NCBI GenBank assembly: GCA_035444565.1
Contig: DAOMOX010000004.1
Location: forward strand, 12,000 to 75,999
Reading direction: 5' to 3'
Source of the DNA: Candidatus Dojkabacteria bacterium
Lineage (GTDB): Bacteria > Patescibacteriota > Dojkabacteria > B142 > OLB20
DNA: 64,000 nucleotides
Positions 38,994 to 61,293 of the stretch are shown here, one piece after another. Made by a program: the position numbers and the translations under genes. Position 1 is the stretch's first letter; each line of letters starts with the position of its first letter. The notes under the pieces were generated by a model. It was not told the DNA's origin and did not search any database. It saw only the letters and a list, made by a program, of their open reading frames with translations.

Positions 38994-41900
38994 TTGAAAT
39001 GTTTCTCAAAAAAAGTTAAATTATATAAACCAATTTCACTAATAATGCGCGTTTCGCGTCCTAATAAAAGCTTGCAGAGAATGCATCGAGACTATTCTCG
39101 TATATTTCGTATACGGAAGAATTTCATACGCAAAAAACTTAAACAAATCTCCAAATTTTTGTTCTTCAAGAAGATAACATTAGCTAGGTGGCAGTTGAAT
39201 ACTTTTACTGTCATGATGCTATCTCTTGGATTTGTCCTTGGCACCTATGCGATGGTTATGGAATTAGTCCCGATTCTGAGGGCTCTCGATGAAACTAGTT
39301 ATACTTTAGTTCAAGGAGGAGATGGTGAATTAACTTCTGGTAGTGGAACTGACGTTGTGATTTCAGCTTCCGCAGTGTCTTTGGGAAAAGACGATAACTG
39401 GTTTGATATGGGCTGGAACCTGAAGAGACAGTTGACTATCAAAAATCTATCAGCAATCACACTTCCTTCAAATACTCCTATTCAATTAACATTAAACACA
39501 AAGGAATTATTTGATGCTTCTAATATTCAGAATGACTGTGATGATCTTAGAGTTATTTATTCTACTGGGGTGGGCAACCATACAGAACTAGCTAGAAGCT
39601 ACTATAAAGCAAGTGGTGCCACGGATTGTTCTGATTCTACTGCGACTGTAGTCACATTCCCAATTCAAGCGGAGCTGACTGCTGGTGCAACAAGCAGCAA
39701 TTACTATTTATACTATAAAAATTCAGGTGCGACTAACCCTGGTTTTGGTGATAATGGCTATAACATAGGCGACGCTGAGGCAACCATGGTCTGTCCGTTT
39801 AATGGTTCGACGACTTGTGTGGATGGTGAGACACCAAGCACTGCAACTGGAGCTTTAAGATTTTCGGGAGGGAGTGCGATTGAAACAGATGGTGCTTGGG
39901 ATAATCCTGATAAAATCACTGGACCGACATTGCCTTCAGTTTCGCAATACACAATAGAGTTCTTTGTCAAAAATAATGGTAACTTTAATTCGTATGCAGG
40001 AATTTACGGAGGGTGGGGTGGTTTTGACGCAAATGATATAAATACTGGAGGCAGTGTAAATGGAATGTTGTTAAATCCTGGTTCGCTAGGTCTGATAGGA
40101 TTAACAGTAAATCACTCTAGTGGTCAATGGGTTCATTTAGCATTCGTTTATGATGGAGTAAATTATTCTGTTTATGAGAATGGTAATAGGATTTACTATA
40201 CACCAAAGACCTTCAGTATTTCAGCCCAAGGGTTCTATCTGGGTGCTAGGAATAGCTACCGAGGATTCAAGGGTCTATACGATGAATTTAGAATTTCCAA
40301 TATTGCAAGGTATTCAGGGAGTTTTACAACCCCAACATCTAACTTCACTGCCGATGCAAATACTTTAGTTTTGTATCATTTTGATGAAAATGGAGATGAT
40401 TTACGAAATACAGGTAAAGCTTATGATTCGAGTGGAAATGGATATCATGGAACAATCTCAGGAGCGAAATACACTTCAAACACCCTCGGTATTTATCAGG
40501 GTACAGCTACTCCTATAAAGACACAAAATATTTTTACTCACGAAGGGGTTCTGTTGGAAGAAGGGGCTACCAATCTAATTACAAATCCGAGTTTTGAAAA
40601 TACAACTTACAACCTAAATTGGGGTAATAGTTTCTTCAATTACAACAACACCTTGGATACCTTTACTGCTTCTATAACTAAAAGAAATAGTGCTGGTCCA
40701 TTTACGTCTGGTGTGATACTACAAGATGATTACGGAGATACCAGTAGTTTGACTTCTGATCAGTTGTCTTTTTCACACGGAACAACTTTGTGGGGAGATT
40801 TTTCAAATAGTAGTGATGATGACCAAGGGACATTAGTTTTCTGGTGGACTCCTGAATATAGTTCTTCCACGATGAATACTGGAAGTACTATGTTTATGGA
40901 AATGCGTTCTTCAAGTAATTTTACATATAACTGGGTAGATGATAAATTTTACCTTGGGGGTTCTCCAATTGGCACTTATGATTTTTCCGCAGGACAGACA
41001 TATTTAGTCGTCTTACGTTGGGATAAAGATAATAATATAATTGCAAATACTGCAAATCTTTCAATAGACAATGTAAGCATAGGAGATGCATCATCATCTG
41101 GACATGTTTGGGAAGATGATTGGGGCTCAACTAATTTATGGGCATTTGATGGTGTAGTCGAAGGTATGACAGTTTACCGAAGACCACTTTTCGATGGATT
41201 GTATGGTATTGACATGGGAACCGGAGATGAAATTGAACAGATTTATAATGCTGGTGCAGGTAAAGATCCTACTTTGATAACAGGAAGTTGGGACGTAGTT
41301 TTTGCAATGCCAACTAACTCTGATAACGGTGTTATTACAACTGGGACAGGGAATGCATGGAGTCATCCACATCAATTAAACCTCCTATATACAAATTCAA
41401 CTAATACGGGTGGTTATATGTTAAATGGTGATTATAGTATTGATAATTGGACTGGTATTGCTAGTCCTCAATCAATCAGTGCATTAAGCACTGTTGAAAA
41501 AATTTATTCTGGTGGTTATAAGATAGAATCAAATTTAATAAATCAAGGTATTTCAAGAAGCTTTGCAGCATCAAGCGGAGGCGATTATGTAATTAGGGCG
41601 ATTGGAAATTCAGATGGAACCTGTACTCCAGTTGTTAAAATTTTACGAGCTGATGGAATTACGGAGATTACAAGTAAGGTGGGAACATCTCTATCAACAA
41701 AAAGCTCGCCAGAAGTATATATCTTCACTTGGGAATCTCCAGCGCTTGAAGATAATATTATCCAACTTCTGAATACCAACAGTAGTGGTATTTGTTATTG
41801 GCATCAAGCTGAGGTTTATAATAACTTGTTTAATAATCCTTCTTTAGAATCTGGAGCAGGCGACCCATGGATACCTACCAGTTGGTGGAATGCAAACATT

Positions 41901-44900
41901 CCTGTCGGGGGGACTCAGCAAGAAACAACTATAGTGCACAGCGGTCAATCATCAATTAAACACAACCTAAACTCACTAAACACTTCAATAGGAACAAATC
42001 TAAATACAAATCCTCCTACAGGAAGTTACTTTGTAGTCGGAGGACACTTTTACGGTGTACCAAATGGTAACGGTAAAAATCAACTTAGTGCCCATAATTA
42101 TTCAGATTTACAACATCAGCCATTACAAAGGCAGTTATTGGGTTTAAAGATAGCTGAATGGCACCATACAGTAGGTGTATATCGGAAGGCACAGGGAAGT
42201 AACACAATTTGGGGTGTAGGTTTAATTGAGGGAACAGGAGTTCATCCAGTATATTCTGACGATCTGTATGCTATTTCTTTGAGTGATGTCTCCCTCAATG
42301 TGAGTCCTGCGAGTGAAGTTAATAGTACAGAAACGACAGGTATAAGGGTTGATGGAAGAGATGTGCTAAGTCAACCCATAACGGGCTTATCAGCTGATAA
42401 AGGACTTGTAAAGTTTAAGTTCACTCCGAGACATAGCTTTAGTATTGCAGATAAGTTCGGAGTAGCAAATCCAGTTATTGTTACACTTACATATGATGGA
42501 AATAGCTATATTAAAATTCAAAAGCAAGACCCAACGACGCTTCGAATGATTGTAAAATTTAATGATAGCCAATCTCTAAATCTTGATTGGAATAACGCTA
42601 TTTTAAATGCTGGCACATCTTATGACTTTGAGATACGTTATTATTCAGGTGGAACTATTAGTTTATCGGTTAATGGAGAAGTAAAAGCGATAGCTTCTGG
42701 TGCCACAAATTTCGCTAACGTTCCAAATACAGCGTATTTTGGTTCTGATGGAGGTGCGAATGTCTATGACTCAACTATTAATAGTTTTGTTTCTTTAACA
42801 CCTACAGAAAATCTAACACAATCAAATCTAAAATTTGGGACAAGGAGTCTTAAACTAGTGAATAGTGGAGCTTCACCGGACGAATATGTAACGGACTTTA
42901 CCTCTACGACGAATGCAGCACATACAGTTAGTGCATATATTTTCAATGCGACCTCTGGGGATATTGGAGAAGCAGTAAGCACCTCTGTCGCACAAATAAT
43001 TTTAGATGGAGAATTACAAACGACTCAGTACGAGGATGCTGGAGGAGGTTGGTGGAGGTTGTTAAGTAGGATAAATAAAATTTATGGAGATTATCCAACT
43101 ACTAATATGGATTCTGACCAAGGCCTTTTCACAGGTACATCAAACAGGCTTCTTTCACAAAGCATTAAACCAACCCAAAACCTTCAAACAGTTCAGGTTG
43201 TAATTCCTTTGAAAAAGGTAGGTGCTGGAACTCCTACAACTACCCATTATCAAGTTCGTATCAATACAGATATTGGTGGAGCTCCATCCGGGACTCTTCC
43301 TCCCGGTGGACATTCTTCTTGTATAGCAGTAACTACAAGTACCTCTTATCAAAATATAAGTTTTACTATACAAACAAGTCTCGCAGCTAATACAACATAT
43401 CATTTGGTATTAACCCCATACGTAAATAGTAACTGTAGCACTTTGCAAACAACCGCTGATCCTACAAACTACATAGCATGGGGATATGATGGATCAACTT
43501 CAAGTTACCTACCTGGTGAGAGATCGATATACGATGGAAGCACTTGGACCCAACAAACCTCAAAAGATCATATTTTCACACTGTACACCGGGAGGACTAT
43601 GGTTGTTGGTTTACGTGTTATGCCAGGTAAAAGTGTTTATATGGATGGGGTGCAGGTTGTAAGTTCTACTTCTCTTTCTAACCCATTGCCTCATACTTAC
43701 ACAGATGGTAGTCTGGGTGCTGGTTATGGATGGACCGGGGAAGAACACAACTCTACAAGTACTCGAACACGAGACTCTCTATACTATCCCGTTCAAGACT
43801 CTTTTGGTCCTACTTCGGGAACAGTGAGCTTTTGGTTTAAACCATACAGGCCATTTGGAAGCGGATATGATCAGTCTGCTCAACACTGGATATATTCTTC
43901 ACATACAACTCAGGGTTCACAATCCTCGGTAAGTGCTTATGTTGATAGTGGGAGAAATTTAAACTTTAGGTTGGCAAATGATGCAAACCAAGTTTTTGAT
44001 ATAAGTCAGGGACCCTGGAGTGCAGGAATATTTCAAGTACAAAAATGGCACAATATGGTACTTGTTTGGGATGGGACAAAGTTCAGCGCATATATAAATA
44101 ATGTATTGTATGGAGAAATTAACTATACAGGTACACTGACAATTAATAACGCCAATATGGGCATAGGGTCTACTTCAGGATGGGCTCCAGCTTTTGGAAC
44201 AATCTCGGATTTCAGAATCTATAACAACTCATTAGATGTAAATGAAGTAGGATACCTCTATCAATCCGGCCTCTCTACGCACACCCAAAGTGATATCGAT
44301 GATAAGAAATACAAAACTACTGCCGATTATGAATCTGGAGTACTTGATCTCGGGAATGCTGGACAATGGGGGAACTCACCAAATTTGTTGATTACTGAAG
44401 CTTTAAACGGAAATACCATCAATTACCAAACTCGGAGTTCAGAGGATAACCTCGTATGGTCTGATTATGCTGCCGTTAGCGGTGACACACCTAATCTAAC
44501 GATTTCAAGCCCTCCAAAAAGATATCTACAGGTAAAGGCAACTTTGAATTCACCAAACCAAAACACGACTCCTGAGTTTAATGGTGCACAAATCAATTAC
44601 GTTCAAGATGCAATACCACCAGAGGTTAACGCTACAGAAACAACTATGAAAAGAACAGTCTCTGGGGATACTATAATAGAAAATAACTTTTCAAATTCTC
44701 AAGCTCCGTATTTCAGCTGGGTTGAGGGTGGAGATGATGCCGATGGGTCTGGACTTCGTGGATATTGTTTATATTTAGGTCCAGACATTGCGGGAAATCC
44801 AGCAAATGATAAAGGACTTTTGGGTTCAAGTCCTGGTTCAACTGCAAATACGACGTGTCCTTTTGTGGTAACTACAAATTCCATTGATTTTGCAAATACA

Positions 44901-47213
44901 AATCTAAGAGGAAACACATGGTTACAATCAACTACTGATCCATATTACATAGTTATCAGGGCTGTTGATAATACTGGAAATGTTTACGACCTAGAGCCAG
45001 AAATATTCGGCTTCAAGTTTGATAACACTCCTCCTACTAATCCTAGCGGTTTATTTGCCCCTGCCAGTTACCAGAGATCTTTCGATAGTTTTGTAATATC
45101 ATGGCCAGCCGATGGGACAAATATGGCTCAAGACACACATTCATTAGTAAAAGGTTTCCAATACAAACTTGGTACAAACGGTACTTGGTATGGAGGTGGA
45201 CACACCGGAGATCAAGATTGTAATGACGTTTTGACAACAAATACCTACGCGCTTGATGCCAACTTCGATAACCTACCGTCTGGAGAAACTCCGTTTTATC
45301 TTAGGACTCTTGACTATGCGTGTAATACATCCGCTTCGGCAATTTCGGCAATCTTAAAATACAACTCGACTGCACCGTCAGCTCCGCGAGATCTGTCGGT
45401 TACTCCAGTAACTAACGATAAAAATGAGTTCTCTTTTACTTGGTTGACCCCAGAAATATACCAGGGAGCGGAATCCAACTTGTCATATTGTTACACAGTT
45501 AATACTCTTCCTACGTCTGGTACTTGTATTTTTACAAGCAGTAAATCATTAAATCCTGATGCATTTGCAACACAACCTGGAGAAAATACATTCTATGTAG
45601 TAAGTCGTGATGAGGCCTCAAATATTAACTATGGGGATTATGCATCAATAAAATTCTACGCCAACACATCAGCCCCTGGTGTTCCTAGAAATTTAGATGT
45701 TGCAGATATTTCTGTTAAAACAACTAAAAACTGGAGACTGACCGTATCGTGGGACGAACCAGAAGACTTAGGTGCTGGAGTTGCAAAATACTTTATCTAT
45801 AGATCATTTGCTGAAAATGCTAATTGTAGTGAAAACTTCTCTTTATTTGGAAAAGTTGGAGAAACTGCTGGAGGCTCTTATGTTGACACAAATCTTCAAC
45901 AAAAAGATCATTTCTATTGTGTGAGAGCATGCGATTCGACAAATAACTGTTCTGCAGTGTCTTCGACGGGTAGTAACTTCCCTGATGGTAAATTTACTAG
46001 TCCTGCGATACTTGAATCAGCCCCTGTTGTAAGTAGTGTTTCAACAAGAAGTGCGAGGATTAGCTGGATAACAGATCGAGATTCAGACTCAAGAATTTCA
46101 TATGGATTGGCAAGCAATGATTATTTCAAAGAAGAAGTTGGAAATTCAGAGCAACGAATTGATCATGATTTGATACTTACAAATCTAGAGCCTGGAACAA
46201 CATACTATTTCCAAGCTAAATGGACAGATGAAGATGGAAACTTAGGATTATCCGACGAATATACATTTAAAACTGCACCACCCCCAAGTGTGAAGGATGT
46301 TGTGGTCAGTAGTGTTGGCATTAGTACTGCAGTTATCAACTTCACGACGACTGGTTCATCAAAGGTAAACTTCCTCTATGGTACTTCCGTAAGTTTTGGA
46401 TCAAGTAAAGAAATCGCAACTAGTCCTCTTGAGTCAAGATACACTACCCTACTTGATGGTTTATCAGAAGGAAGTAAGTATTATTTCAGAGTTGATACTG
46501 AAGATGACGAAGGCTATGTTTATGAAGGTACTGTTCTTGATTTCAATACATTGCCACAACCAAAATTATCGAATGTGCGAATTCAACAAGTGAAAAATGC
46601 TGCTCAACCAACAGTCTTAGTCTCCTGGGAATCAAACACAGAAGTCACCTCTGTGGTTAGTTTATTCCCTGAGGGTAAAGCAGATTTGATTAGAGAGGAA
46701 GTTAATTTAGATTTAAAAGGTGGCGAACATCAGATGATTATTCGTGGGCTGTTACCGAATACTGTGTATGAGTTATTAGTTAAGGGGTCTGATAAATTAG
46801 GAAATCAAGCAACATCAACTGCACAGAGAATAACAACTGCAACTGATACTAGACCTCCTGCAATTTCAAACGTACAGATTGAAGCTGGTAAAGGTAATGT
46901 TACTGATAGTTCTCAATTCATAGTTACATGGACAACAGACGAGCCCACCACTTCACAAGTTGAATATGGAGAAGGTACAGGTAGTAGCTATCCACAGAGA
47001 TCACAATTGGATAGCAATTTTACACTTGATCACACCATCGTAATTTCTGGTTTAGCACCTGGAAAGGTTTACCATTTGAGAGCAGTTTCAACTGACGATG
47101 CAGAGAACACAACATACTCTCTAGACTATGTCGCAATTACTCCAAAAGAGTCTAATAGTGCAATAGAGCTTGTGATTAGTAGCTTGTCTAGGGTGTTCTC
47201 CTTCCTGAGATAA
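38994..47213 (+). CDS. Giant (2739 aa) TM-anchored cell-surface protein: DUF2341-like, multiple LamG/ConA-like jellyrolls, CBM4/9-like modules, FN3 domains and four C-terminal PAP-N/FN3-like repeats
   Basis: Basic N-terminus then TM ([19 protein letters not shown]). DUF2341-like aa ~130-255 (…[12 protein letters not shown]…[11 protein letters not shown]). LamG-like TIEFFVKNN…[19 protein letters not shown] and [12 protein letters not shown]…[19 protein letters not shown]…[11 protein letters not shown]-like [21 protein letters not shown]3 [14 protein letters not shown]…FSFTWL and [11 protein letters not shown]…[10 protein letters not shown]. Four ~95-aa repeats [17 protein letters not shown]…[28 protein letters not shown]…[24 protein letters not shown]…[26 protein letters not shown]…[16 protein letters not shown]. 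Confidence 0.8.
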
Positions 47214-47216
47214 ATT

Positions 47217-48506
47217 TCATCGACTGCCTATAACCGGAATCTCCTCCCACCTTGTAGTATATCTCGGTGAACGAAGTGCCTGTTCTTTGATTGGATTCAA
47301 GAAAACCATTTGATTCGCATACTTAACTGTGCCTTTTCCCCAGATAGAGTTGAGTTTATCAAACGATTTCATAAGGATTCTCTGTTTTATATCTTCTTGA
47401 GGATTTGGGGTAGTGAAAATGTTTTGTTGGTATTCGCCTTTATTGTAGAAATTCTCCAAAAACACCCCTGCCCTTTTGTATTTGTATCCTGAGCGGAAAA
47501 TCTGCCTCAGGCCATTGAGCGCATTCTTCGTCAAGAGTGGTGTGTAATCGGTAGGTGTTTCGAGTTTTATCAAGTATGAATTAGAGTATCGTCCTTCGGG
47601 GGTAAATCTATCTGTTGTAAGGAAAACCCAAATCCTGGATGTTACTGAACCCTGTGCTCTTAGGCTTCTGGAGGCACTATCGGTGAAGCGTGCTACCGCT
47701 TGAGCGACTTGGTTGTATTCGGTGTAAGCTTTCTTGAACGTACGGCTACAGAGTATGCCTTTTTTCGAGCTACGATGTGGGTTGATTGGGTAACATCGAA
47801 TACTATGGAGTTCAAGCCAGGTACGTTCGAGCATAACTCCATATTCTTGTCGAAGTAGATGTCTATCAGCTTTGAGGAGGCTTGGGATGTCTGCAATATC
47901 AAAAATCTTTAATCTTCTAGCAATACGTCCTCCTATTCCCCAAATGTCATCAATGTCGAGATGTTTTAAATATTCAATATGTCTATAGTCGGTAATGTCA
48001 TTTATCTGATAAACCCCATCATTTTCGATGAATTTCTTGGCGATTTTGTTAGCAAGTTTGGCTAAGGTTTTGGTGTTTGCTAGTCCGATTGAGATTGGAA
48101 TACCTGTCCAGCGATAAATTGTCTCTTTCATTTCTATTGAGTTCCGAAGCATTCTCTGTGGTGACGTTATAGGAATTCGTAGAAATGCCTCATCAATAGA
48201 ATATATCTCAATTTCCTGACAAAACTCATGTAGTGAACGAAATACTCTCTCTGACATATCCTGATAAAGTGTAAAGTTTGCGGAGCGCACAGCGACGTTG
48301 TTCTCGATAAATCGATCTTTCCATTCAAATAGAGGAGCTCCCATGGGGACTCCCATGGCTTTCAATTCGTTTGATCTGGCGATGACACATCCGTCATTAT
48401 TAGAGAGAACCGCTGTCGGGCGATTACGGAGTGTCGGATCAAAGACTCTCTCGCAAGAAACATAGAAATTATTGCAGTCGACGATACCATAAATATCGGA
48501 AGACAT
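47217..48506 (-). CDS. umuC: Y-family translesion DNA polymerase, UmuC-like (Pol V catalytic subunit)
   Basis: IYGIVDCNNFYVSCERVFDPTLRNRPTAVLSNNDGCVIARSNELKAMGVPMG aligns closely with E. coli UmuC (MFALCDVNAFYASCETVF…VVVLSNNDGCVIARN). Confidence 0.85.
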   Translation of the reverse strand: MSSDIYGIVDCNNFYVSCERVFDPTLRNRPTAVLSNNDGCVIARSNELKAMGVPMGAPLFEWKDRFIENNVAVRSANFTLYQDMSERVFRSLHEFCQEIEIYSIDEAFLRIPITSPQRMLRNSIEMKETIYRWTGIPISIGLANTKTLAKLANKIAKKFIENDGVYQINDITDYRHIEYLKHLDIDDIWGIGGRIARRLKIFDIADIPSLLKADRHLLRQEYGVMLERTWLELHSIRCYPINPHRSSKKGILCSRTFKKAYTEYNQVAQAVARFTDSASRSLRAQGSVTSRIWVFLTTDRFTPEGRYSNSYLIKLETPTDYTPLLTKNALNGLRQIFRSGYKYKRAGVFLENFYNKGEYQQNIFTTPNPQEDIKQRILMKSFDKLNSIWGKGTVKYANQMVFLNPIKEQALRSPRYTTRWEEIPVIGSR

Positions 48507-48976
48507 CAGAGTTCATGAATATTGTAGGCAACTACACCCCATATCTCGAAGTCGTTCTCCGGAGTAATACGATAAAGTGTGGATCTGGTATTCCAGGGCG
48601 TCAAATATGTGATGTGTTTAGATATTAATATCTTTTTGATTAATAATTCACCATCTAGGCTCACGACAACGATTGATTTATCTGTAATGGGTAATGAACG
48701 ATCCACTACAAGTAAATCTCCTTTGTGGATTCCCCATTTTCTCAAGTCATTATCCCCTGCTTTCATAAAAAATGTACTGGAAGGCTTTTTAATAAGATAT
48801 GACTGAATATCGAGTTTTAGGTCAGATTCGTTTCGAATAGGAGTCGAAAAAGCTACTGTAGAAAGTTCGAGATCCTTTCGAGATTCATTTTTCTGTTCTT
48901 CGTACAATCTAGTCGAACGGAAGTCCTCCTGATAGTCTAAGAATGTTGTTTCGGGTGCGTAGATATTATTCTGCAT
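48506..48976 (-). CDS. umuD: UmuD-like S24-fold protein with substituted nucleophile (GDND instead of GDSM) and no Ala/Cys-Gly cleavage site
   Basis: KAGDNDLRKWGIHKGDLLVVDRS…VVVSLDGELLIKKI aligns with UmuD [21 protein letters not shown]…AAVDGEFTVKKL. The Lys is conserved and the Ser is Asn. Start shares 48506 with the umuC stop and the other end overlaps the lexA stop. Confidence 0.7.
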   Translation of the reverse strand: MQNNIYAPETTFLDYQEDFRSTRLYEEQKNESRKDLELSTVAFSTPIRNESDLKLDIQSYLIKKPSSTFFMKAGDNDLRKWGIHKGDLLVVDRSLPITDKSIVVVSLDGELLIKKILISKHITYLTPWNTRSTLYRITPENDFEIWGVVAYNIHEL

Positions 48977-49628
48977 GTTTGGTTGAGAAATTAGGGTTAT
49001 CTAAAACTGCTACGACTTTGCCGTAGATATCTGTATCTCCTAGAGAAGATGCATCTAGGTAGAATGGTTTGTGTCGTGTGTTGGTGGACTCTGGGTAAAG
49101 TACCACGATGTTTCGGTCTTTTTTGATAGTTTTGATAGTTGCGCAGTTATCGATAATTGCTAAAACAACATCGCCATTTTTGATATCAACGTTTTTTGCT
49201 ATGACTGCATACTTGCCATCCTCGAGTGTTCCTCCATCAACTTCACGCATGTTCATAGAATCTCCTTTTATCATAAGGGCGAAGACGTCCTTGGTGACTG
49301 GAAGGAGACTGCGATTAATACGTAAATAGCCAAGTTGTTGTTCCTGGGCTATCACCATAGGTGCTCCAGCATTTGCATAGCCGAGGATATTTACATCTAT
49401 AAACATCTGTCCGGACTGTGTTTCCCGAAGAGTTATACCTCGGGACGACGAAGATCGATTTATCAATCCTTTTTTCTCAAGTGCTTGTAGATGTTTAACG
49501 ACTGCTCTGCGAGTGATACCAAGTGCTCGCTCCATCTCTGTAAGTGTGGGTGCTTGGCCAGTTTCGATAATGAAGGACTTTATAAGGGATAGTATTTCGT
49601 TTTGTCTTGTGGTTATGGTATGTGTCAT
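48966..49628 (-). CDS. lexA: LexA repressor (wHTH + S24 autopeptidase, intact)
   Basis: Likely start is the second Met (MTHTITTRQNEILSLI…). The ORF-track start at 49685 would translate the upstream repeat region. wHTH LTEMERALGITRRAVVKHLQALEKKGLI. Cleavage site ANAGAP, GDSM and IKTIKK are conserved. Confidence 0.8.
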   Translation of the reverse strand: MTHTITTRQNEILSLIKSFIIETGQAPTLTEMERALGITRRAVVKHLQALEKKGLINRSSSSRGITLRETQSGQMFIDVNILGYANAGAPMVIAQEQQLGYLRINRSLLPVTKDVFALMIKGDSMNMREVDGGTLEDGKYAVIAKNVDIKNGDVVLAIIDNCATIKTIKKDRNIVVLYPESTNTRHKPFYLDASSLGDTDIYGKVVAVLDNPNFSTKHAE

Positions 49629-49629
49629 A

Positions 49630-49673
49630 TAGGTATACTTAATATACTTAAAATGGTATACAAGGTATACAAG
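49630..49673. promoter_or_regulatory. Repeat-rich candidate LexA operator region at the lexA start: TAGGTATACTT, (TATACTTAA)x2, (GTATACAAG)x2
   Basis: Three GGTATAC cores plus tandem direct repeats directly abut the lexA ATG. The 11-mer TAGGTATACTT recurs upstream of dnaE. Confidence 0.35.
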
Positions 49674-49741
49674 AATGTCAAGCAATTAATATAATTTTAT
49701 GAACTTTAATATTGGAAGATTGAAGTACTAAGTTATCTAAG

Positions 49742-50071
49742 TTAGATATATTTCTCACCGAGTTTCTTGTGATTCTTGCCCCAAGTAGACATTGAAACTA
49801 AAACAGGTCTTAGAGTTTTCCCGTAAGGAGTGATTGAATATTCAACCTTTGGTGGGATCACGGGAAATATCTTTCGCTTTATGAGTCCATCTTTTTCAAG
49901 TTCACGTAACTGCGATGTAAGCATTTTTTGTGTAATACCGGTGATTTCTTTCTGTAATTCACTAAATCTTAGAGTTTTTTGATCAAGATGCCACAGAAGA
50001 AGTGGTTTCCACTTTCCTCCTATTACTTTCAAAGTAATATTTACCGGGTTATCACTGTTGCAGACTCTCAT
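49742..50071 (-). CDS. HxlR-family (MarR-like wHTH) transcriptional regulator
   Basis: TLKVIGGKWKPLLLWHL…LRFSELQKEITGITQKMLTSQLRELEKDGLIKRKIFPVIPPKVEYSITPYG is the HxlR/DUF24 signature. Start trimmed to the internal Met (ORF track extends to 50167 and would overlap the divergent neighbour). Confidence 0.75.
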   Translation of the reverse strand: MRVCNSDNPVNITLKVIGGKWKPLLLWHLDQKTLRFSELQKEITGITQKMLTSQLRELEKDGLIKRKIFPVIPPKVEYSITPYGKTLRPVLVSMSTWGKNHKKLGEKYI

Positions 50072-50192
50072 TTGACGAATATTAGTATATATAATGTAAG
50101 TATAGCATATAAAAGTAAGTACTTGTATTAAATATAACATATCTTGTATGGTGTTTGTATCCTTCATTACTTTATTTATTATTTATATAACT

Positions 50193-50801
50193 ATGTGGAA
50201 CAAAATAGCGGATGATGCAACAATTATGAAAACAGTAAAAGCTTTAGAAGCCAACCAATTTTTAGTCACAGTGGTAAATAATGCCATTGAAGCAAAAAAG
50301 GAAATCGAAACATTAATCCCAGCAGGCTCACAGGTAATGCAAATGAGTTCGGAGACATTAGATAATACAGGAATTTCCGATATGATTAATTCAGATAACT
50401 TTGATGCAATTAAACCAAAATTGTGGGCAAAAGGTGAGAATGCACTCTCTCCTCAAGAGAAAGCTATTGCAGCAAACTTGGCTAAATATTCAGTCGGGAG
50501 TCTACAAGCCATCACAGGAAATGGAGAATTAGTAATTGCTTCAAACACAGGGAGTCAGATGGCTGCTTATGTTTATGGGTCAGAAAAAGTAATATTCGTC
50601 GTAGGTGCTCAGAAACTAGTTAAAGATATTGATGCAGCTATGAAGAGGATTTATGGTCACGTTTTACCTCTTGAAAGTGAACGAGTGAAAAAAGCTTACG
50701 GTATGGAGAAAAGTAATGTAAGTAAGTTGTTAATAATCAATAAAGAGACACAACCTGAAAGAATTCATATAGTAATCGTTAAAGAGAGTCTCGGGTTCTA
50801 A
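50193..50801 (+). CDS. LUD-domain (LutC/YkgG-like) protein
   Basis: MWNKIADDATIMKTVKALEANQFLVTVVNNAIEAKKEIETLIPAGSQVMQMSSETL matches the LUD (lactate-utilisation) domain layout. Start trimmed to the internal Met. Divergent from the HxlR regulator. Confidence 0.55.
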   Translation: MWNKIADDATIMKTVKALEANQFLVTVVNNAIEAKKEIETLIPAGSQVMQMSSETLDNTGISDMINSDNFDAIKPKLWAKGENALSPQEKAIAANLAKYSVGSLQAITGNGELVIASNTGSQMAAYVYGSEKVIFVVGAQKLVKDIDAAMKRIYGHVLPLESERVKKAYGMEKSNVSKLLIINKETQPERIHIVIVKESLGF

Positions 50802-50845
50802 AACTTTCATACAAAATAATTTTTTGCTAAACTATTGCACATTAT

Positions 50846-51109
50846 TTGTTAAACTTTAATAAAATGGCTGGTAAAGAAGGTGGAGATAATCCAAACCATG
50901 TATGGGAGAAAAGGAATGTAACAACTGGAGAAGAACCAATAGAAGTATCCGAACAGCAAAGGGCATTCGAAAATAGAATAAATGATATACCTGAAGATGA
51001 GTGGAACCAGGATCCTCAGCAAGCCTATGGTCGTGCAGTTGTAGGCGATTTAGACGAAAAATTTAACCACAAAATCAAAAATGAAAGAGGAAGAACTGAC
51101 TCCGTATAA
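50846..51109 (+). CDS. Small hydrophilic hypothetical protein
   Basis: 87-aa acidic ORF overlapping the pip start. No motif. Confidence 0.25.
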   Translation: MLNFNKMAGKEGGDNPNHVWEKRNVTTGEEPIEVSEQQRAFENRINDIPEDEWNQDPQQAYGRAVVGDLDEKFNHKIKNERGRTDSV

Positions 51110-52019
51110 CAACGGCTACATCCAAGTTAGCGATAAGCACAAACTCTACTACCACCAATACGGAAATCCCGAAGGTGAAGTCGTGCTTCAAATTCATGGT
51201 GGACCAGGGTCAAACTCAAAACCAAAACATGTCAATCCGTATGATTTGAAACGTTTTAGAGTAGTGCTTTTTGATCAAAGAGGTTGTGGTAAGTCAGAAC
51301 CTGCTGGTTTACTTGAAGAAAATACTACGACAGATACAGCTGAGGATATTGAGAAACTTAGAGAGTACCTAAAGATTGAAAAATGGTACATTCATGGACC
51401 GAGTTGGGGGTCAACCATAGCGTTGCTGTATGCTCAAAAACATCCTGAAACTGTAAAGAAATTATTATTAAGAGGGGTTTTCTTGGCATCAAAAGCAGAA
51501 AATGATTGGCTCTTTAAGTACGGTGCCAATCAACTATTTCCTGATAAATTTGAAGATTTGATGAATATTATCCCAAGTGATAAAAGAGAAGATTATTTAG
51601 AATATTTATATGAAATCGCAAAAGTTAATAATAAAGAACTAAAAGAAAAGTTATTTACAAACTTTGGGAAGTGGGAGGGTTCAATTCTTAGTTTGTTCCC
51701 CGAAGAAGATGAAGCAAGTGAAGTTGATATCGAGAAAGAAATTGTATCATCATCAATAATGCTTCATTATTCAGTTAACCATTATTTCCTCGAAGACGAA
51801 GAAATATTAAAGGATGAAAATATCCAAAAGTTAAAAGATATTCCCATGGTGATAGTAAATGGCAGGTACGACATTGTCACACCGATTATTTCTGCTTGGA
51901 AGTTGCATAAGGCACTCCCCCACTCGTTTTTAGATATTGTCCACCTAGCTGGTCATCATGGAAGTACAGACATTGAGATGGTGAAGGCGATACAGAAGTG
52001 GATTGATTTCGACTTCTGA
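51081..52019 (+). CDS. pip: Proline iminopeptidase (S33 family)
   Basis: HGGPGSNSKPKHVNPYD…LFDQRGCGKSEP…GPSWGSTIALLYA are canonical prolyl aminopeptidase motifs. Confidence 0.85.
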   Translation: MKEEELTPYNNGYIQVSDKHKLYYHQYGNPEGEVVLQIHGGPGSNSKPKHVNPYDLKRFRVVLFDQRGCGKSEPAGLLEENTTTDTAEDIEKLREYLKIEKWYIHGPSWGSTIALLYAQKHPETVKKLLLRGVFLASKAENDWLFKYGANQLFPDKFEDLMNIIPSDKREDYLEYLYEIAKVNNKELKEKLFTNFGKWEGSILSLFPEEDEASEVDIEKEIVSSSIMLHYSVNHYFLEDEEILKDENIQKLKDIPMVIVNGRYDIVTPIISAWKLHKALPHSFLDIVHLAGHHGSTDIEMVKAIQKWIDFDF

Positions 52020-52054
52020 GTTTATCCTGTGGCTTGTGCCACCCGGAGGTCATC

Positions 52055-52304
52055 CCGTGGTTTAACCACGGGATCCTGAGCTTTCCTGATTAGTACGTTT
52101 GAGAGGATATACGGGACTCCGTGGTCCCTCCCTTTCGGCAGGGCAGGCAAGCAAGGAGAGACAGCGCGAGGTTCGTTCTCCTTAGTCTTCCCGTGGCTTG
52201 ACCACGGGAACCCGAGCTTTCCTGACTAGCACGTGTGAAAGAATATACGGGACTCCGCGGTCCCTCCCTTTCGGCAGGGCAGGCAAGCACGGAGAGACGG
52301 CAGG
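52055..52304. repeat. Two tandem ~135-bp GC-rich (~60%) highly structured repeat units (A 52055-52189, B 52190-52304) plus a partial hairpin copy at 52025-52045
   Basis: Direct alignment of the two units gives roughly 85-90% identity, with substitutions concentrated in hairpin loops (CCCGTGG-TTTAA-CCACGGG versus CCCGTGG-CTTGA-CCACGGG; GGGAC-TCCGTG-GTCCC versus GGGAC-TCCGCG-GTCCC). The region lies between convergent 3' ends. Confidence 0.7.
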
Positions 52305-52312
52305 TATGGATA

Positions 52313-54070
52313 TTAACTAATTGCACCACTAGACTGAAGCTCCCATAAGTACTTGTAAATTCCATTTTCGCGGTGAATCAAATCTCTGTGATTACCTTCT
52401 TCAACGATTTGGCCTTTATCGAAAACGAGGATTCTATCAACTTTTTCAATTGTTGAGAGTCTGTGTGCAATTACTATAGTTGTTTTATCTGCTGAAAGTT
52501 CCCAGAATGCTTGTTGGATTTCACGCTCGGAAATAGAATCTAGGTTACTCGTTGCTTCATCGAGGATGATTATAGGTGCCTCTTTAATGAATGCCCGAGC
52601 TATTGCTAATCGCTGTTTTTGACCACCTGAGAGTTTGACTCCTCTTTCTCCAATTTCAGTTTCGTATTTTCTAGGGAGCTGAGTAATGAAACTGGTCAAG
52701 TAGGCCTTTCTCGAGGCTTGATCTAATTGATCTGCTGAGTATTTCCCGGCATTTCCATAACCGATGTTATAACCAATAGTGTTATTGAATAATGAAGCCT
52801 CCTGAGGTACCATAGCGATTAATTTCCGTAGTGATTGTTTAGGGATATCTTTGATGTTTACACCATTTATAAAAATATCTCCTGTAGTCGGGTCAAAAAA
52901 TCGCATCAACAATTTCACAATTGTAGTCTTTCCTACACCAGAATGTCCTACAAGTGCGACAGATTCACCTTCACGGATTGTGAGGTTTAAGTTGTTAAAA
53001 ATTGGTCTTTTTTCATCATATCCGAAAGTTAGATTTCGAAATTCAATCTCCAACTTGCCATCTTTATCATCCAGTAACTTTTGGTTTTCGGACGATATTC
53101 GTTTAAATTTATCAACAACAGTAATTTCTTCATCCAATATACTCATATAAGACTTTAGATCTTCATAATTTTTTGCAAGTTCACGGAATTGGAATACAAG
53201 ATATTTTATTTTTGGGTAAAACGTATTGGCGAAAGATATTGCAAGAATAAAGTCTCCTGCGTTTATTACACCATTTACTAAATCCACTATCGCTACAATT
53301 ATCGTTATTAGAAAAGCAAAATTGCTAATTCCACCATTACTCAAATCAATTACTCTGAATGTCTTAGCGTAGTTAATACAATCGTGATACCACTTATCAA
53401 CAACTTTGGAAAATCGTTTTTGCTCGTATTTCTCATTGGCAAAGTATTTAACTGAGTCAAATGCAATCATATTGTCAACAATTTGGGAATTAACATCGTC
53501 CTCAGTCCTATTTAAAACCTTTCTTTTGTTTACATTGTTCTTTACCGTGAAGTACATGACTGTTGCATTTACAAAGAATGCGATTACTGTGATGATTATT
53601 AGTTTAGGATAGATTGTTGAGTAGATTGCCACTATAATTACGAAGTCGAATACTACACGAGACATCCAAATATTAAGCTCATCATAAAAAGAAAAAAACG
53701 CCCCTTCTCCTCTTTTGAAAATGCTAATTAATTTACCTGAAGATTTATTTGCATGATAGCTGAAATCTAAATCATGTAAGTGTCTGAGTACGTCTTTCTT
53801 TAGCTTCGCTGCTGCTCCAAAAAGTGCAAAATCAGAGATGTACATCGTGAATGTGTCACCAAGATATGTGACCAAAACAATCGATGATATGAGTAAAATT
53901 GATCTGTATAAAAATTCGGTTTCTCCCTCAAGAGCAAAATTAACAACATCACGGAATAAAAGTGGCAGTATGTTACTTAAAATTGCCATGAAAATATTCA
54001 AAATCGTGGCAGTGACAAAGAAATACTTAAATTTCCAAACGTATCTGTAAAATTTACCTAAGATTTTCAT
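52313..54070 (-). CDS. ABC exporter, fused TMD-NBD (MsbA/type I exporter-like)
   Basis: Six-TM N-domain. Walker A GHSGVGKTT, signature LSGGQKQRLAIARAF, Walker B IIILDEATSNLD. Confidence 0.9.
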   Translation of the reverse strand: MKILGKFYRYVWKFKYFFVTATILNIFMAILSNILPLLFRDVVNFALEGETEFLYRSILLISSIVLVTYLGDTFTMYISDFALFGAAAKLKKDVLRHLHDLDFSYHANKSSGKLISIFKRGEGAFFSFYDELNIWMSRVVFDFVIIVAIYSTIYPKLIIITVIAFFVNATVMYFTVKNNVNKRKVLNRTEDDVNSQIVDNMIAFDSVKYFANEKYEQKRFSKVVDKWYHDCINYAKTFRVIDLSNGGISNFAFLITIIVAIVDLVNGVINAGDFILAISFANTFYPKIKYLVFQFRELAKNYEDLKSYMSILDEEITVVDKFKRISSENQKLLDDKDGKLEIEFRNLTFGYDEKRPIFNNLNLTIREGESVALVGHSGVGKTTIVKLLMRFFDPTTGDIFINGVNIKDIPKQSLRKLIAMVPQEASLFNNTIGYNIGYGNAGKYSADQLDQASRKAYLTSFITQLPRKYETEIGERGVKLSGGQKQRLAIARAFIKEAPIIILDEATSNLDSISEREIQQAFWELSADKTTIVIAHRLSTIEKVDRILVFDKGQIVEEGNHRDLIHRENGIYKYLWELQSSGAIS

Positions 54071-54072
54071 AG

Positions 54073-54648
54073 TTATATACTAATTGAGTCTTCAAATGTG
54101 CCATTCGAAGTATCGGATACATTTTTGTCTGTTGTCTTTTTATTATCTTGCTCTTTTTTCTCTGTAGCTGGCTTTTTTCTAGCAATTAGAATTAGTATCA
54201 AATTGGCGAATAAGGATATGAATATAGAAGAGTTTAAAAGAACTAATATAGACGTTGCTAATGATTTTTCAATATCTTTGGAAAATAGAAAATCTACCTC
54301 AAAAATAAACAATCCTGTTAAATAATAAAATGTAATTACATAGTATGCTACTAAACAGAAAATAATCGATGCAGTCGAAATGATAGGAACTAGAATATAA
54401 TTGAATCTTCTATTAAATAATCTAGAATACTTGAATATATACCCAACAATGAGCCAGGTGAATATGTTACTTATAATAAAAAAAGAAATTGAAACGTATA
54501 GATTATCAAATCCTCCTCGTATCATTAGAAGAGGTTCTTCTTCAATAAAAACACCCAAGAGATTATAAGCGACCACGAGAATGGTTAATAATACTCCAGG
54601 TAGAAAGACTTTAGTCAAAGTAAATAATGATTTCAAAAAGTTTCGCAT
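54073..54648 (-). CDS. Hypothetical membrane protein with charged C-terminal tail
   Basis: Four to five TM segments. No motif. Confidence 0.4.
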   Translation of the reverse strand: MRNFLKSLFTLTKVFLPGVLLTILVVAYNLLGVFIEEEPLLMIRGGFDNLYVSISFFIISNIFTWLIVGYIFKYSRLFNRRFNYILVPIISTASIIFCLVAYYVITFYYLTGLFIFEVDFLFSKDIEKSLATSILVLLNSSIFISLFANLILILIARKKPATEKKEQDNKKTTDKNVSDTSNGTFEDSISI

Positions 54649-56606
54649 TCGCCTTTTACTTTAATTTGATTTGTTTGGATAAATTTGTTGATTTCACTAA
54701 TAATAAGTGGATCAATTTCTTTTTTGTCTGGTGTGTAATTTATTAAGATCGGTTCTGTCGTCAAACCATTACATTCACCGTATTCTAGTACTAATTTTTT
54801 AAGTATAGAAATTTCATTCCAATTTGTATCATTACATTCAAAAATTTTATGTGATTCCTCGATTGTTCTAACTTCTTGAGACCAAAGATTGTTTGGATAT
54901 AGAGTTATTGTAAAAGCATTCATCTCAATAGATGAAAATTGATTTCTATTTTCAATAAAACTCTGGTTAAGACTTCTCGAATAATGATTAATATCTATAT
55001 TATTAATTGGTTGACCTTTCGAATAGACTACATTTGCGGTTTCAATGTATTTATCTAACGAAGTAACAGGATCAGTTGATATAGAAAAATTGCTAATACC
55101 ATTGGTTATGATACTATCAATTTGCTTCTTTTCGGTTATAATATCTAGATTGTCAGTTTGTTTACAATTTGTGTATTTCGATTCAAATTTCGAGTAATCG
55201 TCAATAATTCTCAATAATTCCGCAACATCTAAATTAATAGCGGTATTTGGGTTTTCGATTACTAAATAATCTTTTTCAGAAATTTCTTCTGAATAAATTC
55301 TTTTCATTTCTACCTTGATTTCTTCGTTAAGTTTGTCGGTATTTGATTTCAAAGTGTTAATCTTCTCAGTAGCGTATTCTTTACACTGATCTAAGGCTGA
55401 GGTCATAGATGTAATATTTTTCCTAAGTACAGTGTCTGTTTCTTTGAGCTGGCTAACATATTCATTATATTTATTGATTTTCGGTTTAATCTCATTTTGT
55501 TCGTCATTTAATTTGGATATTTGGTCATTATTACTTCGAATATTTTGGGCTAATAGGTCAATCATCACCGATTTTGAAATTTCAGAAGCATTTATTTTTA
55601 CAATAGAATCTTTTTTATCAATTATGTTTAAAGATTTATCTTGTATTAACCGAACTTCGGCATCACTGTTGTTTAGTAATTTGAGGAATTGGAAAAATTC
55701 GTCTTGATCTTCAAATGCATACCATGTGTTTTTATCATCCAGACTTAAAGAAATCATTTTATCGTCCTTAACAGTCTGCATCTGTGCTCCATAGAAATTA
55801 TAAGTCTGTAAAGTTGTTAATGCTTGGTAATCTTCGTTTAAATCTCTTTGTAGTATCGCAATTTCTTGTTGCTCAGTAGTTTTTTTAGATTTTAAAAATT
55901 GTAAATCTTGCATAATTTTTTTCGTTTCTTCCCCTAGGTCAATATTCTCTTTGCTTAGTTTAGTTATAATCTCATCAGATTCTGTAAGTTTTAAGGAGGA
56001 TGTATTATAAATAGAGGTAAGACTATCCGTATATGTTCTTACTTTGTCATAACTTTCGTTTATGTATTTAGTTGAGGAAGTAATGGTTTGTAAGGAAGGA
56101 GATTCACATTGGATAGATCCATTCAGAACTCCATCGATTATATTCAAATTAATCTTATCATCCAAGATATTATTAATTGCATCAATATTCATGTAATATT
56201 CTCTTTCTTTGGCACAGTTATTAATGTATCTATTCAATTCTGTTTCAAAGTCCTCTGTTATTTCTGCTAAATCTTCAAGTTTTTTCAATTTAGATGTTAT
56301 CTCAGTTGTATCATCTAGGAATCTCTGTCCATCCTTGGAATTACTAAATGATTGACAAGCTAAATTAGCTGATTCTACTAATGTTACAAAGGTCGTAAAT
56401 TCATCCTTATTTACCTGATCTTTTTCGTCGAGAGTAGATATCTTAGAAGTTTCAATATTGTTGTATTGGATTTTAAGCTCACTTAAAAGTGGTAAGTAAT
56501 TATTCCCTTCAAATTCAGTTATTGACAGGGAGTTAACCTTCGTTTGAAGTGAGGAGATACCAAAAAATATCATGATTATGAAAGTTAATACTCTTGCTAA
56601 TTTCAT
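54633..56606 (-). CDS. Secreted 657-aa coiled-coil-rich, Asn-rich protein with eight spaced cysteines
   Basis: Signal peptide MKLARVLTFIIMIFFGISSLQT. Long heptad-like stretches. Cysteines in LACQ, NNCAKE, IQCESP, DQCKEY, TNCKQT, FECNDT, GECNGL, GECETF. Confidence 0.5.
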   Translation of the reverse strand: MKLARVLTFIIMIFFGISSLQTKVNSLSITEFEGNNYLPLLSELKIQYNNIETSKISTLDEKDQVNKDEFTTFVTLVESANLACQSFSNSKDGQRFLDDTTEITSKLKKLEDLAEITEDFETELNRYINNCAKEREYYMNIDAINNILDDKINLNIIDGVLNGSIQCESPSLQTITSSTKYINESYDKVRTYTDSLTSIYNTSSLKLTESDEIITKLSKENIDLGEETKKIMQDLQFLKSKKTTEQQEIAILQRDLNEDYQALTTLQTYNFYGAQMQTVKDDKMISLSLDDKNTWYAFEDQDEFFQFLKLLNNSDAEVRLIQDKSLNIIDKKDSIVKINASEISKSVMIDLLAQNIRSNNDQISKLNDEQNEIKPKINKYNEYVSQLKETDTVLRKNITSMTSALDQCKEYATEKINTLKSNTDKLNEEIKVEMKRIYSEEISEKDYLVIENPNTAINLDVAELLRIIDDYSKFESKYTNCKQTDNLDIITEKKQIDSIITNGISNFSISTDPVTSLDKYIETANVVYSKGQPINNIDINHYSRSLNQSFIENRNQFSSIEMNAFTITLYPNNLWSQEVRTIEESHKIFECNDTNWNEISILKKLVLEYGECNGLTTEPILINYTPDKKEIDPLIISEINKFIQTNQIKVKGECETF

Positions 56607-60007: not shown

Positions 60008-60504
60008 ATTATAGATTTAGAAAAATTAGAGACTTTCCCATCTTTATCAAAAATACATTTCATAAAAAACACTTTTTCATCAACAATATCTTGGAATGAG
60101 TAATTTAAATCGTCAACTAATTCTAATTCATGATTTATTATTTGTTCGCTTTTTAACCATAAAAACTCACCATCCTCTGTTTTATTTCCAAGTGGAAGGA
60201 ATTCATCGTTTACTTTAAACTTGAAGATGCAGATAATCCAATCATCATCAGAACCCTTTTCTAGTATATCCATTCCACAGAAATTGAGATCCTTTTCAGT
60301 GATGATTAATCCAGTTTCTTCCTCAGTTTCTCTAATTGCCGCATCTACAAAATTTTCACCCAATTCAAGTTTTCCGCCAATTCCATTTAATTTATCAGGG
60401 TCAACTTTAGTGTTCGAATTCCTTTTTAGGAAAAGATACTTATCGTTGTGATAAATAAAAACTGTAACTGCTTTTATTCCAACTCTTTTGTAGTAATTTT
60501 TCAT
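60004..60504 (-). CDS. NUDIX hydrolase
   Basis: Nudix box GGKLELGENFVDAAIRETEEETGL. Confidence 0.8.
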   Translation of the reverse strand: MKNYYKRVGIKAVTVFIYHNDKYLFLKRNSNTKVDPDKLNGIGGKLELGENFVDAAIRETEEETGLIITEKDLNFCGMDILEKGSDDDWIICIFKFKVNDEFLPLGNKTEDGEFLWLKSEQIINHELELVDDLNYSFQDIVDEKVFFMKCIFDKDGKVSNFSKSII

Positions 60505-61133
60505 AATATTTTATCAATTTCTTTTAATAGTTCTTTAGATTCGAGAATTCTTGTATGACCTACAATGTCAAGCTGAATATTTTTCGCATTTTTGAGTTTC
60601 AAGCTACTGTTAGGAATTACCATATTATCAAACCTTGGGTAGATATTTATGATTTTGTCAGTTTTAAATTTATTTATTTGTTTTAATAATTCACTTTTGG
60701 GTTTAATTTCATTTAAACTGATTTTCTGAAAGTAACCGAAGATAGAACCTTTATGTGGCGTTGAGATATTTATTACATTAATAATTCTATCGTTATATTT
60801 CTCTAGTAAAATTCTTGAGATTAGACCACCTTTACTGTGAGAAATAATACTAAAATTATTTAAATTTCGATTATCTATGTATTCTGAAATGTTGTCTACA
60901 ATTTTATTAATTGGATCACGTGTTTTAAATACAGGGAAATGAATTCTGTATCCATGTTTATTAAAATAGTCTGCAATTGTTTTTAGAGATGTCCAAATAC
61001 CATTAATCCCAATAATCATGATGATGTCACCTTTCTCACCAATTTGGTAATATTCGGGAATCGGCTTATGAAAACCAACAACTTTATGTTTAAGGATAAG
61101 GTAATATTCTTGAATTAAATTTATTATTAGCAT
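60501..61133 (-). CDS. Alpha/beta-hydrolase, lipase/esterase-like (PGAP1/LCAT-like)
   Basis: Nucleophile elbow IISHSKGGL (GxSxG). Confidence 0.6.
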   Translation of the reverse strand: MLIINLIQEYYLILKHKVVGFHKPIPEYYQIGEKGDIIMIIGINGIWTSLKTIADYFNKHGYRIHFPVFKTRDPINKIVDNISEYIDNRNLNNFSIISHSKGGLISRILLEKYNDRIINVINISTPHKGSIFGYFQKISLNEIKPKSELLKQINKFKTDKIINIYPRFDNMVIPNSSLKLKNAKNIQLDIVGHTRILESKELLKEIDKIL

Positions 61134-61163: not shown

Positions 61164-61191
61164 TCCCTCCCTAGATTAATCTAGGGAGGGA
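61164..61191. promoter_or_regulatory. Perfect 12-bp GC-rich inverted repeat TCCCTCCCTAGA-TTAA-TCTAGGGAGGGA downstream of tRNA-Gly
   Basis: Seen directly. Lies between the tRNA 3' end and the start of the hydrolase gene. Possible terminator or processing hairpin. Confidence 0.35.
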
Positions 61192-61219: not shown

Positions 61220-61293
61220 AAGCGGCGAACCGGAATCGAACCGGCGACCTTCTCCTTGGGAAGGAGACATTCTACCAACTGAACTACCGCCGC
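61220..61293 (-). tRNA. tRNA-Gly (anticodon CCC)
   Basis: Minus-strand sequence GCGGCGGTAGTTCAGTTGGTAGAATGTCTCCTTCCCAAGGAGAAGGTCGCCGGTTCGATTCCGGTTCGCCGCT folds as a cloverleaf: 7-bp acceptor, D-loop AGTTGGTAGA, anticodon loop TTCCCAA, T-loop GGTTCGATTCC. CCA is not encoded. Confidence 0.85.

Follow-up and report, generated by a model that had tools for sequence, protein, structure and literature searches.

Between two convergent genes of a Candidatus Dojkabacteria genome lies a GC-rich island of two similar units rich in hairpins. The question raised by this locus is whether such an island is an uncharacterised non-coding RNA or a structured DNA repeat, and the original prediction named both. 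Our analysis indicates with high confidence that the two units form a tandem array of a palindromic mosaic repeat, which is non-coding, dispersed and specific to this lineage of Candidatus Dojkabacteria (CPR/Patescibacteria). It is a REP/BIME-like repeat array, an ordinary kind of element in an unusual host, and not a new structured RNA gene.

The pip/ABC exporter spacer and its two units

The window, i.e. the whole 64-kb stretch of DNA that was analysed, has an overall GC content of 0.347. The island has a GC content of 0.55-0.61 per 100 nt with a peak of 0.68 per 60 nt, and is the sole long GC island in the 64 kb; the two units occupy 52049-52301 within it. The spacer between the two convergent genes is 293 nt long and is filled wholly by the island. 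Tandem Repeats Finder reported a repeat at 52049-52298 with a period of 136, 1.8 copies, 89% matches, zero indels and a score of 416. A repeat search gave two 117-nt copies (52049-52165 and 52185-52301) that are 89% identical. The original prediction of a tandem pair of ~135 bp, of ~60% GC in AT-rich surroundings and between convergent genes, pip (+) and an ABC exporter (-), was accurate on all these points. The features of the spacer and its flanks are listed below with the source of each assignment.

51081-52019, + strand: alpha/beta-hydrolase, proline-iminopeptidase-like ORF (pip) (ORF table, domain and protein comparison)
52020-52048, + strand: leader, partial decayed hairpin GTGGC-TTGT-GCCAC at 52029-52042 plus junction GGAG (direct-repeat family D2)
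52049-52162, + strand: unit A, consisting of GTC, hairpin a, spacer, hairpin b with core, and tail AGAC (covariance model R1, repeat searches)
52052-52074, no strand: unit A hairpin a, ATCCCGTGGTT-T-AACCACGGGAT, a perfect 11-bp palindrome (inverted repeat I3, 100% complementary)
52075-52116, + strand: unit A spacer ("mid", ~42 nt, ~45% GC), CCTGAGCTTTCCTGATTAGTACGTTTGAGAGGATATACGGGA (alignment A1)
52117-52158, + strand: unit A hairpin b, outer stem CTCCGTGG / CAAGGAG, partly decayed, around the core insert (sequence)
52126-52147, + strand: unit A core, 22 nt, CCCTCCCTTTCGGCAGGGCAGG, in the loop of hairpin b (presence/absence comparison)
52163-52184, + strand: inter-unit linker, AGCGCGAGGTTCGTTCTCCTTA (sequence)
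52185-52298, + strand: unit B, consisting of GTC, hairpin a, spacer, hairpin b with core, and tail AGAC (covariance model R1)
52188-52210, + strand: unit B hairpin a, TTCCCGTGG-CTTGA-CCACGGGAA (sequence)
52211-52252, + strand: unit B spacer (sequence)
52253-52294, + strand: unit B hairpin b, with the core within it at 52262-52283 (sequence)
52295-52298, + strand: unit B tail AGAC (sequence)
52299-52312, + strand: trailing junction, GGCAGGTATGGATA, ending at the ABC exporter stop codon (ORF table, sequence)
52313-54070, - strand: ABC exporter, stop codon at 52313-52315 (ORF table, domain search)

The unit anatomy was derived from comparing copies across loci. Covariance model R1 matched unit A at 52044-52172 (+) with 96.7 bits (E 3.9e-22) and unit B at 52180-52308 (+) with 90.2 bits (E 1.7e-20). 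In the repeat family hairpin a reads (A/T)TCCCGTGG-TTTAA-CCACGGGA(T/A) and is preceded by GTC. The spacer of ~42 nt ends in ...TTTCCTGATTAGTACGTTTGAGAGGATATACGGGA and is followed by hairpin b, CTCCGYGG-loop-CCRCGGAG, then the tail (A/T)GAC. Read as the reverse complement, hairpin b and its RTGAC tail resemble hairpin a and its GTCAY head, and a unit therefore consists of two inverted REP-like palindromes round a spacer. The building block is a REP-like imperfect palindrome, GTCAY-TCCGYGG-TTTAA-CCRCGGA-RTGAC, present twice per unit in opposed orientation with the tails outward. The spacer is directional, and the polarity of the unit comes from it. Units are about 105-130 nt long, and linkers of 20-45 nt connect them head to tail. 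Linkers similar to the one in the window (GAGAGACGCCGAGTGGGGTATTCC...) separate the units of arrays on contig L028, described below. All 31 distinct units, with hairpins of 21-23 nt, are located between called genes or ORFs.

Units A and B differ at 13 positions. The differences had been predicted to fall in hairpin loops, which is true of positions 13/16 in the loop of the first hairpin and of one more in the GGGAC..GTCCC loop, but positions 4/26 are in a stem and exchange A-T for T-A, a compensatory change, and the remaining differences are in the unstructured middle. The predicted CCCGTGG/CCACGGG stems were recovered in both units (arms 52052-52062/52064-52074, and 52188-52210). The GGGAC-loop-GTCCC stem is also present in both, but it is restricted to core-bearing copies, and the stem conserved in the family is CTCCGYGG/CCRCGGAG. 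The partial third hairpin expected before unit A was found at 52025-52046 as a member of repeat family D2, which pairs 52025-52036 with 52189-52200, and it has a counterpart in L012. The leader (52020-52048) is what remains of another hairpin or unit. The extra leader hairpin is also seen in L012/L013 (GTCATCCCGTGACTTGTGCCACCATGAAGTC) and is absent from L003 and L008, where the unit begins directly after the stop codon.

Two other readings of the island were rejected. The ORFs that cross it, 52090-52365 (-, 91 aa) and 52198-52320 (+, 40 aa), have no Pfam match, and since unit number varies among relatives, their conservation is impossible. A CRISPR-like array does not fit units of 105-136 nt that have no unique spacers.

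Orthologous spacers, the core insert and dispersed copies

The pip protein is 77% identical to a protein (P0005) named Candidatus Dojkabacteria by NCBI, and the related contigs come mostly from activated sludge. The synteny of the LexA-like pair, pip and the ABC exporter is kept in relatives, while the content of the spacer varies. In nine related genomes the orthologous spacer ranges from one hairpin to two units, with the core present or absent.

L025, 62 nt: single hairpin, CTCCTGT-TTTC-ACAGGAG-TGAC
L016, 66 nt: single hairpin plus core
L008, 109 nt: single unit, core absent
L022, 124 nt: single unit, decayed
L012, 135 nt: single unit and a partial hairpin
L020, 169 nt: single unit, each hairpin with a core
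L023, 243 nt: single unit and debris
L003 (MAG DTUPAT2): two units, core in one
Window, 293 nt: two units, core in both

At least one GC-rich hairpin directly follows the pip stop codon in 9/9 relatives examined, and no empty site was found at any locus compared among relatives. The window and L003 (DTUPAT2) have the same sequence in hairpin a of unit B, so the duplication predates the split between these two. L008 corresponds to L003 minus one unit, probably lost by recombination between identical spacers. Arrays occupy fixed intergenic sites, and units, cores and hairpin variants are gained and lost between close relatives. Unequal recombination or gene conversion among the copies may produce these changes.

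Upstream of pip is an SOS-type cassette (47217-49685, -) composed of a LexA-like repressor, a second, stand-alone Peptidase_S24 protein and a Y-family polymerase (IMS/IMS_C/DUF4113), and the synteny of this cassette is kept in all Dojkabacteria relatives fetched. A 2739-aa ORF (38994-47213, +) is probably a giant surface protein, given the Laminin_G_3 and fibronectin-III-like domains of its homologues in L008-L010.

The 22-nt core is an optional, stem-extending insert in a hairpin loop and can lengthen either hairpin. It is an exact 22-nt indel: L003 unit A reads T[core]CAAG and L003 unit B and L008 read TCAAG. With the host stem included, the latter two read CGCGG-TCAAG-CCGCGG and L003 unit A reads CGCGG-T[22 nt]CAAG-C.CGG in the same place. 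Hairpin b is without the core in L012 and L007b as well. Sixteen core copies were found in differing host hairpins, with 0-4 substitutions. The core is forward in hairpin b and reverse in hairpin a, i.e. always toward the outer GAC end of the unit, and at one syntenic site it is in the opposite hairpin in L026/L005 vs L028. The core sequence is conserved more strongly than its host stems, which could reflect a sequence-specific function beyond the repeat explanation. An exact-pattern scan for the core in 185,579 species genomes had a sole match, in the MAG 'bacterium DTUPAT2', and the same scan of JGI metagenomes yielded two real relatives and one chance match (a 69% GC contig).

A perfect 13-bp hairpin, TCCCTCCCTAGAT-TA-ATCTAGGGAGGGA, is located at 61164-61191 between an ORF (60501-61133, -) and tRNA-Gly (61221-61293, -). 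L008 conserves this hairpin (20869-20896), as does L023 (19099-19126), there with compensatory changes (TCCCACCGTAGCTTAAGCTAAGGTGGGA). The 9-mer TCCCTCCCT, noticed originally as common to the island and this hairpin, was confirmed by sequence search and is part of the 22-nt core.

One contig, L001 (ENA ERZ773355, NODE_18, coverage 34.87), is identical to window positions 48081-55019. A second contig from this assembly is L028 (NODE_6, coverage 34.94), and given the same assembly and coverage, L028 and the window are very probably from one genome. Within 22 kb L028 carries 10 units, in arrays of 1-3 units distributed over four intergenic sites.

3985-4366, + strand: 3 units, between divergent genes
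6457-6873, + strand: 3 units, between tandem minus-strand genes, antisense to them
12216-12342, - strand: 1 unit, between convergent genes
14183-14589, - strand: 3 units, between tandem minus-strand genes, in sense

Unit orientation and gene context vary, and include divergent, tandem (both senses) and convergent gene pairs. In total this assembly has 12 units at 5 loci in ~86 kb, a density that is biased because L028 was reached via an element copy. At syntenic sites the number of units is 3 in L028, 2 in L029 and 1 in L026. The core also occurs at a second, unrelated DTUPAT2 locus (L004) and in L005 and L007, the last with two element loci within 1.6 kb; tblastx of the L004, L005 and L007 flanks against the window gave no relationship. 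A glycosyltransferase beside another element copy is 84% identical to Dojkabacteria MAG proteins, and together with the pip comparison this assigns the window to an uncultured member of Dojkabacteria. No further copies were found in the 64-kb window using blastn with a word size of 7. R1, which matches both strands, added one weak match to the two units of the window, at 38872-38983 (-), AT-rich, with an E of 0.0018. Viral contigs had no match to two hairpin patterns.

The weak R1 match is directly upstream of the 2739-aa ORF and has the hairpins TTCCTTC-GAAA-GAAGGAA and TCCCTGA-TCAAG-TCAGGGA ~50 nt apart; L022 conserves the second of them (7119-7137). The match probably represents a unit that has decayed. 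The L028 arrays are within an envelope sugar-synthesis cluster at 2900-15700 (glycosyltransferases, dTDP-sugar isomerase, epimerases and GtrA) in what is a biased sample. The L026 glycosyltransferase (3029-4255, -) is called as 408 aa vs 314 aa in L028 and L029. Its additional N-terminal part overlaps a repeat unit (4068-4185), so the repeat is the probable cause of an erroneous, longer gene call.

RNA gene, transposon or palindromic repeat

Stem pairing is maintained by compensatory substitutions. In alignment A1 (12 units) the named structure is 88.9% paired vs 32-46% with the partners slid by 1-3 columns, and compensatory changes are present at three hairpin a positions and one hairpin b position. 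Across the repeat family, hairpin a has compensatory changes at 3-4 stem positions and the hairpin b stem has C-G to U-A changes. The 31 distinct units recovered with R1 show two or three types of Watson-Crick pair at each of six stem positions. RNAalifold on the 12 units predicted only two short palindromic hairpins and no consensus pairs in the spacer. A candidate stem closing the spacer, CCYG/CGGG, was rejected; it had only wobbles or mismatches, no compensatory change and frequent G-to-A loss. Non-Watson-Crick cells on the unit strand were 13 G-U vs 35 A-C, with two inherited positions dominating, and strand inference from these mostly inherited counts was rejected as ambiguous. The fold energy of the island was below that of shuffles in single-sequence folds, with z -2.5 on the plus strand and -3.2 on the minus strand. 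Stability above shuffles is expected of GC-rich palindromes.

Preservation of the stems had been read as selection for RNA structure. The compensatory changes are real, but palindromic DNA repeats behave alike: stem-preserving mutation is a recorded property of REPs in BIMEs (PMC2817692), and compensatory stems therefore do not separate an RNA from a palindromic DNA repeat.

The entire window was examined with Rfam cmscan at the gathering score, using 4227 families and both strands, which returned only the tRNA at 61221-61293. A search of 51900-52450 at E<=10 gave a single chance snoRNA match outside the element. The suggested resemblance to SRP-RNA domain IV was not upheld at either threshold. 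No promoter-like sites were found within the island and no U/A tracts flank its stems. The island has a single match to the terminator pattern, on the minus strand, where a 5-bp stem is followed by a weak tail. The region has no excess of terminator-like sites over shuffles (11 vs 9.4 +/- 3.2).

A multi-copy family of structured small RNA genes, in which each unit is a functional transcript with hairpins under RNA selection, would account for the compensatory changes in both stems, the fold energy under that of shuffles on both strands and the strong conservation of the 22-nt core sequence. We nevertheless consider such a family quite improbable. Rfam offers no match, conserved structure is limited to two simple palindromes, and these fold alike on both strands, in keeping with R1 matches to both. 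The G-U and A-C counts give no clear strand preference, the units take either orientation to genes and their tandem number (1-3) varies from one close relative to another, and the island has neither a promoter-like site nor a U-tract terminator. For a known RNA gene (SRP RNA, 6S, tmRNA or RNase P) or a cis-regulatory leader the chance is close to nil. All that speaks for it is that one segment loosely resembles the consensus of SRP domain IV; that segment is the mobile 22-nt core plus the hairpin b stem and is missing from many units, none of the 4227 families matched the element, and an element at the 3' ends of both genes is not placed as a leader.

A non-autonomous transposon (MITE) with terminal inverted repeats GTCAY...RTGAC, mobilised by a transposase in trans, is also unlikely, though less so than an RNA gene family. 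The unit ends are indeed inverted repeats (GTCAT...AGAC/TGAC), copies are dispersed, and related terminal palindromes are found with GIY-YIG ORF cassettes at two sites in one relative. However, no target-site duplication is visible at any copy, there are no empty sites among the relatives compared, and no transposase gene is present in the sampled loci. Sites are conserved while unit number varies, which resembles within-array recombination and not new insertion. The original prediction held that the lack of an Rfam match and of transcription, together with many dispersed copies, would favour a REP/MITE-like repeat; of these, the missing Rfam match and the dispersed copies were seen. Of its "ncRNA or structured repeat" the structured repeat stands, and the ncRNA does not, given the absence of an Rfam match, the two hairpins only, the two orientations and the variable copies.

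Architectural parallels, possible spread and probable role of the repeat

REP/BIME-type repeats are well studied in proteobacteria, and REP copy number is typically >100, dispersed over the genome. CPR/Patescibacteria genomes are small and thought to be streamlined, and our literature search found no description of REP/BIME-type repeats in them. In architecture, the closest parallels to the Dojkabacteria repeat are REP/BIME/REPIN, the RAYT-associated repetitive extragenic palindromes of proteobacteria (Nunvar et al. 2010, PMC2817692), and the Neisseria NIMEs. No homology to either is shown, and we place the repeat with the REP/BIME kind, as a variant that is new and specific to its lineage.

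Like REPs, the hairpins of the units (21-23 nt) are short, GC-rich, imperfect palindromes outside genes, and like BIMEs, the arrays (1-3 units) have opposed palindromes round a spacer in modules placed head to tail. Palindromy kept by complementary mutations and length polymorphism between strains, both recorded for REP/BIME (PMC2817692), are paralleled by the six stem positions and by spacer lengths of 62-293 nt. In both systems the sequence is specific to a species or lineage and copies are often at 3' ends or between convergent genes. The conserved 5' tetranucleotide of REPs is GT[AG]G, whereas Dojkabacteria units begin GTCAT/GTCTT/GTCAC (GTCAY). The nested 22-nt stem-extension module and the small-genome CPR host also set this repeat apart from REP/BIME. 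A RAYT, an IS200/IS605-type Y1 transposase, is flanked by two inverted REPs in REP/BIME systems, whereas in Dojkabacteria relatives a GIY-YIG gene lies between inverted copies of related palindromes. No PF01797-type (RAYT) genes are among the called genes of the ~30 fetched loci, and the ~300 kb of DNA sampled showed neither a transposase nor a RAYT.

In NIMEs, ~20-bp dRS3 inverted repeats (ATTCCCN8GGGAAT) flank 50-150-bp RS elements, and the arrays are syntenic, length-variable between strains and often near surface-protein genes (PMC1797815). The Dojkabacteria repeat similarly has ~20-bp inverted repeats (here ATTCCGYGG-N5-CCRCGGAAT), intervening repeat segments in the 50-150-bp range, GC that is high in the palindromes and lower between them, and syntenic arrays of differing repeat number, as in L028, L029 and L026. 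Its arrays are also near cell-surface genes, namely the glycosyltransferase/rhamnose sugar-synthesis cluster of L028, in a biased sample. The likeness is one of architecture only, as the Dojkabacteria motif is (C)AYTCCGYGG-TTTAA-CCRCGGARTG and is 23 nt, not 20. NIMEs have >100 RS families vs a single conserved spacer family in Dojkabacteria, which is a different phylum. The Dojkabacteria repeat is not known to be linked to a filamentous phage or a Piv-type recombinase, and two scans of viral contigs were empty.

A GIY-YIG gene of 94 aa (86 aa according to gene callers; PF01541) was found in L026, L031 and L032, in the following cassettes.

L026: 6230-6840
L031: 540-1110 and 3130-3710
L032: 6910-7170 and 9586-9846

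The gene is located exactly at the two intergenic sites that hold 3-unit arrays in L028 (2-3 units in L028/L029). Each copy is bounded by inverted TGTCACTCCTGCGAAGGCAGGAGTC, with more copies and half-sites (AGGAGTGACAAT) alongside. L031 and L032 have two GIY-YIG copies per contig with an identical 5' leader, and the right junction of one cassette (...GGAGAGACACCGGGGTCATCATTTCTCCAGAATATC) matches the end of the L028 array. The palindromes flanking the gene have GTCAY/RTGAC ends like those of the window hairpins. Palindromes of this second type (CATTCCTGCCTTCGCAGGAATGACA and ACTCCTGCCTTCGCAGGAGTGAC) are also present in L004 (7450-7700; MAG DTUPAT2) beside a lone core-bearing hairpin, and no GIY-YIG gene is near this cluster. 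Within the window and L001-L030, GIY-YIG genes were restricted to L026/L027.

The GIY-YIG cassette looks mobile and is possibly a REPtron analogue, in that a gene with flanking inverted palindromes parallels RAYT genes flanked by REPs. A literature search found no paper on a GIY-YIG gene flanked by REP-like palindromes. A tentative idea, which we regard as possible but doubtful, is that a small GIY-YIG nuclease, and not a RAYT, drives a REPtron-like system to which both the window units and the related GTCACTCCTGCGAAGGCAGGAGTGAC palindromes belong. If the nuclease cuts or homes into hairpins, this would explain the spread of the repeat, its mosaic exchange and the nested 22-nt core. More generally, our favoured guess is that spread would occur via a nuclease or recombinase that recognises GTCAY/RTGAC-tailed hairpins.

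At the pip/ABC exporter locus the hairpins may act as a bidirectional transcription barrier and as a 3'-end protector for both mRNAs, by analogy with enterobacterial REPs. They would be transcribed as the 3' ends of both convergent mRNAs and would block read-through and exonucleases. This role seems most likely because the entire convergent spacer is filled and every relative keeps a hairpin after the pip stop codon. A link between REPs and transcription termination is on record (PMC2817692), and stable GC-rich hairpins right after two convergent stop codons are a feature of intrinsic bidirectional terminators. Contrary to a terminator role, a U-tract is lacking from the hairpins, the region has no excess of terminator-like sites, and units are also present between divergent genes, where termination is not needed.

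The locus calls for caution in describing GC-rich structured islands in such MAGs as new ncRNAs, and its repeat array is a ready marker for strain typing. If the GIY-YIG link is true, a second, independent enzyme class would be tied to REP-like repeats. In one sampled region, which is biased, the repeats concentrate around cell-surface polysaccharide genes. The presence of a multi-module palindromic family in Dojkabacteria means that small genomes still hold fast-evolving repetitive DNA.
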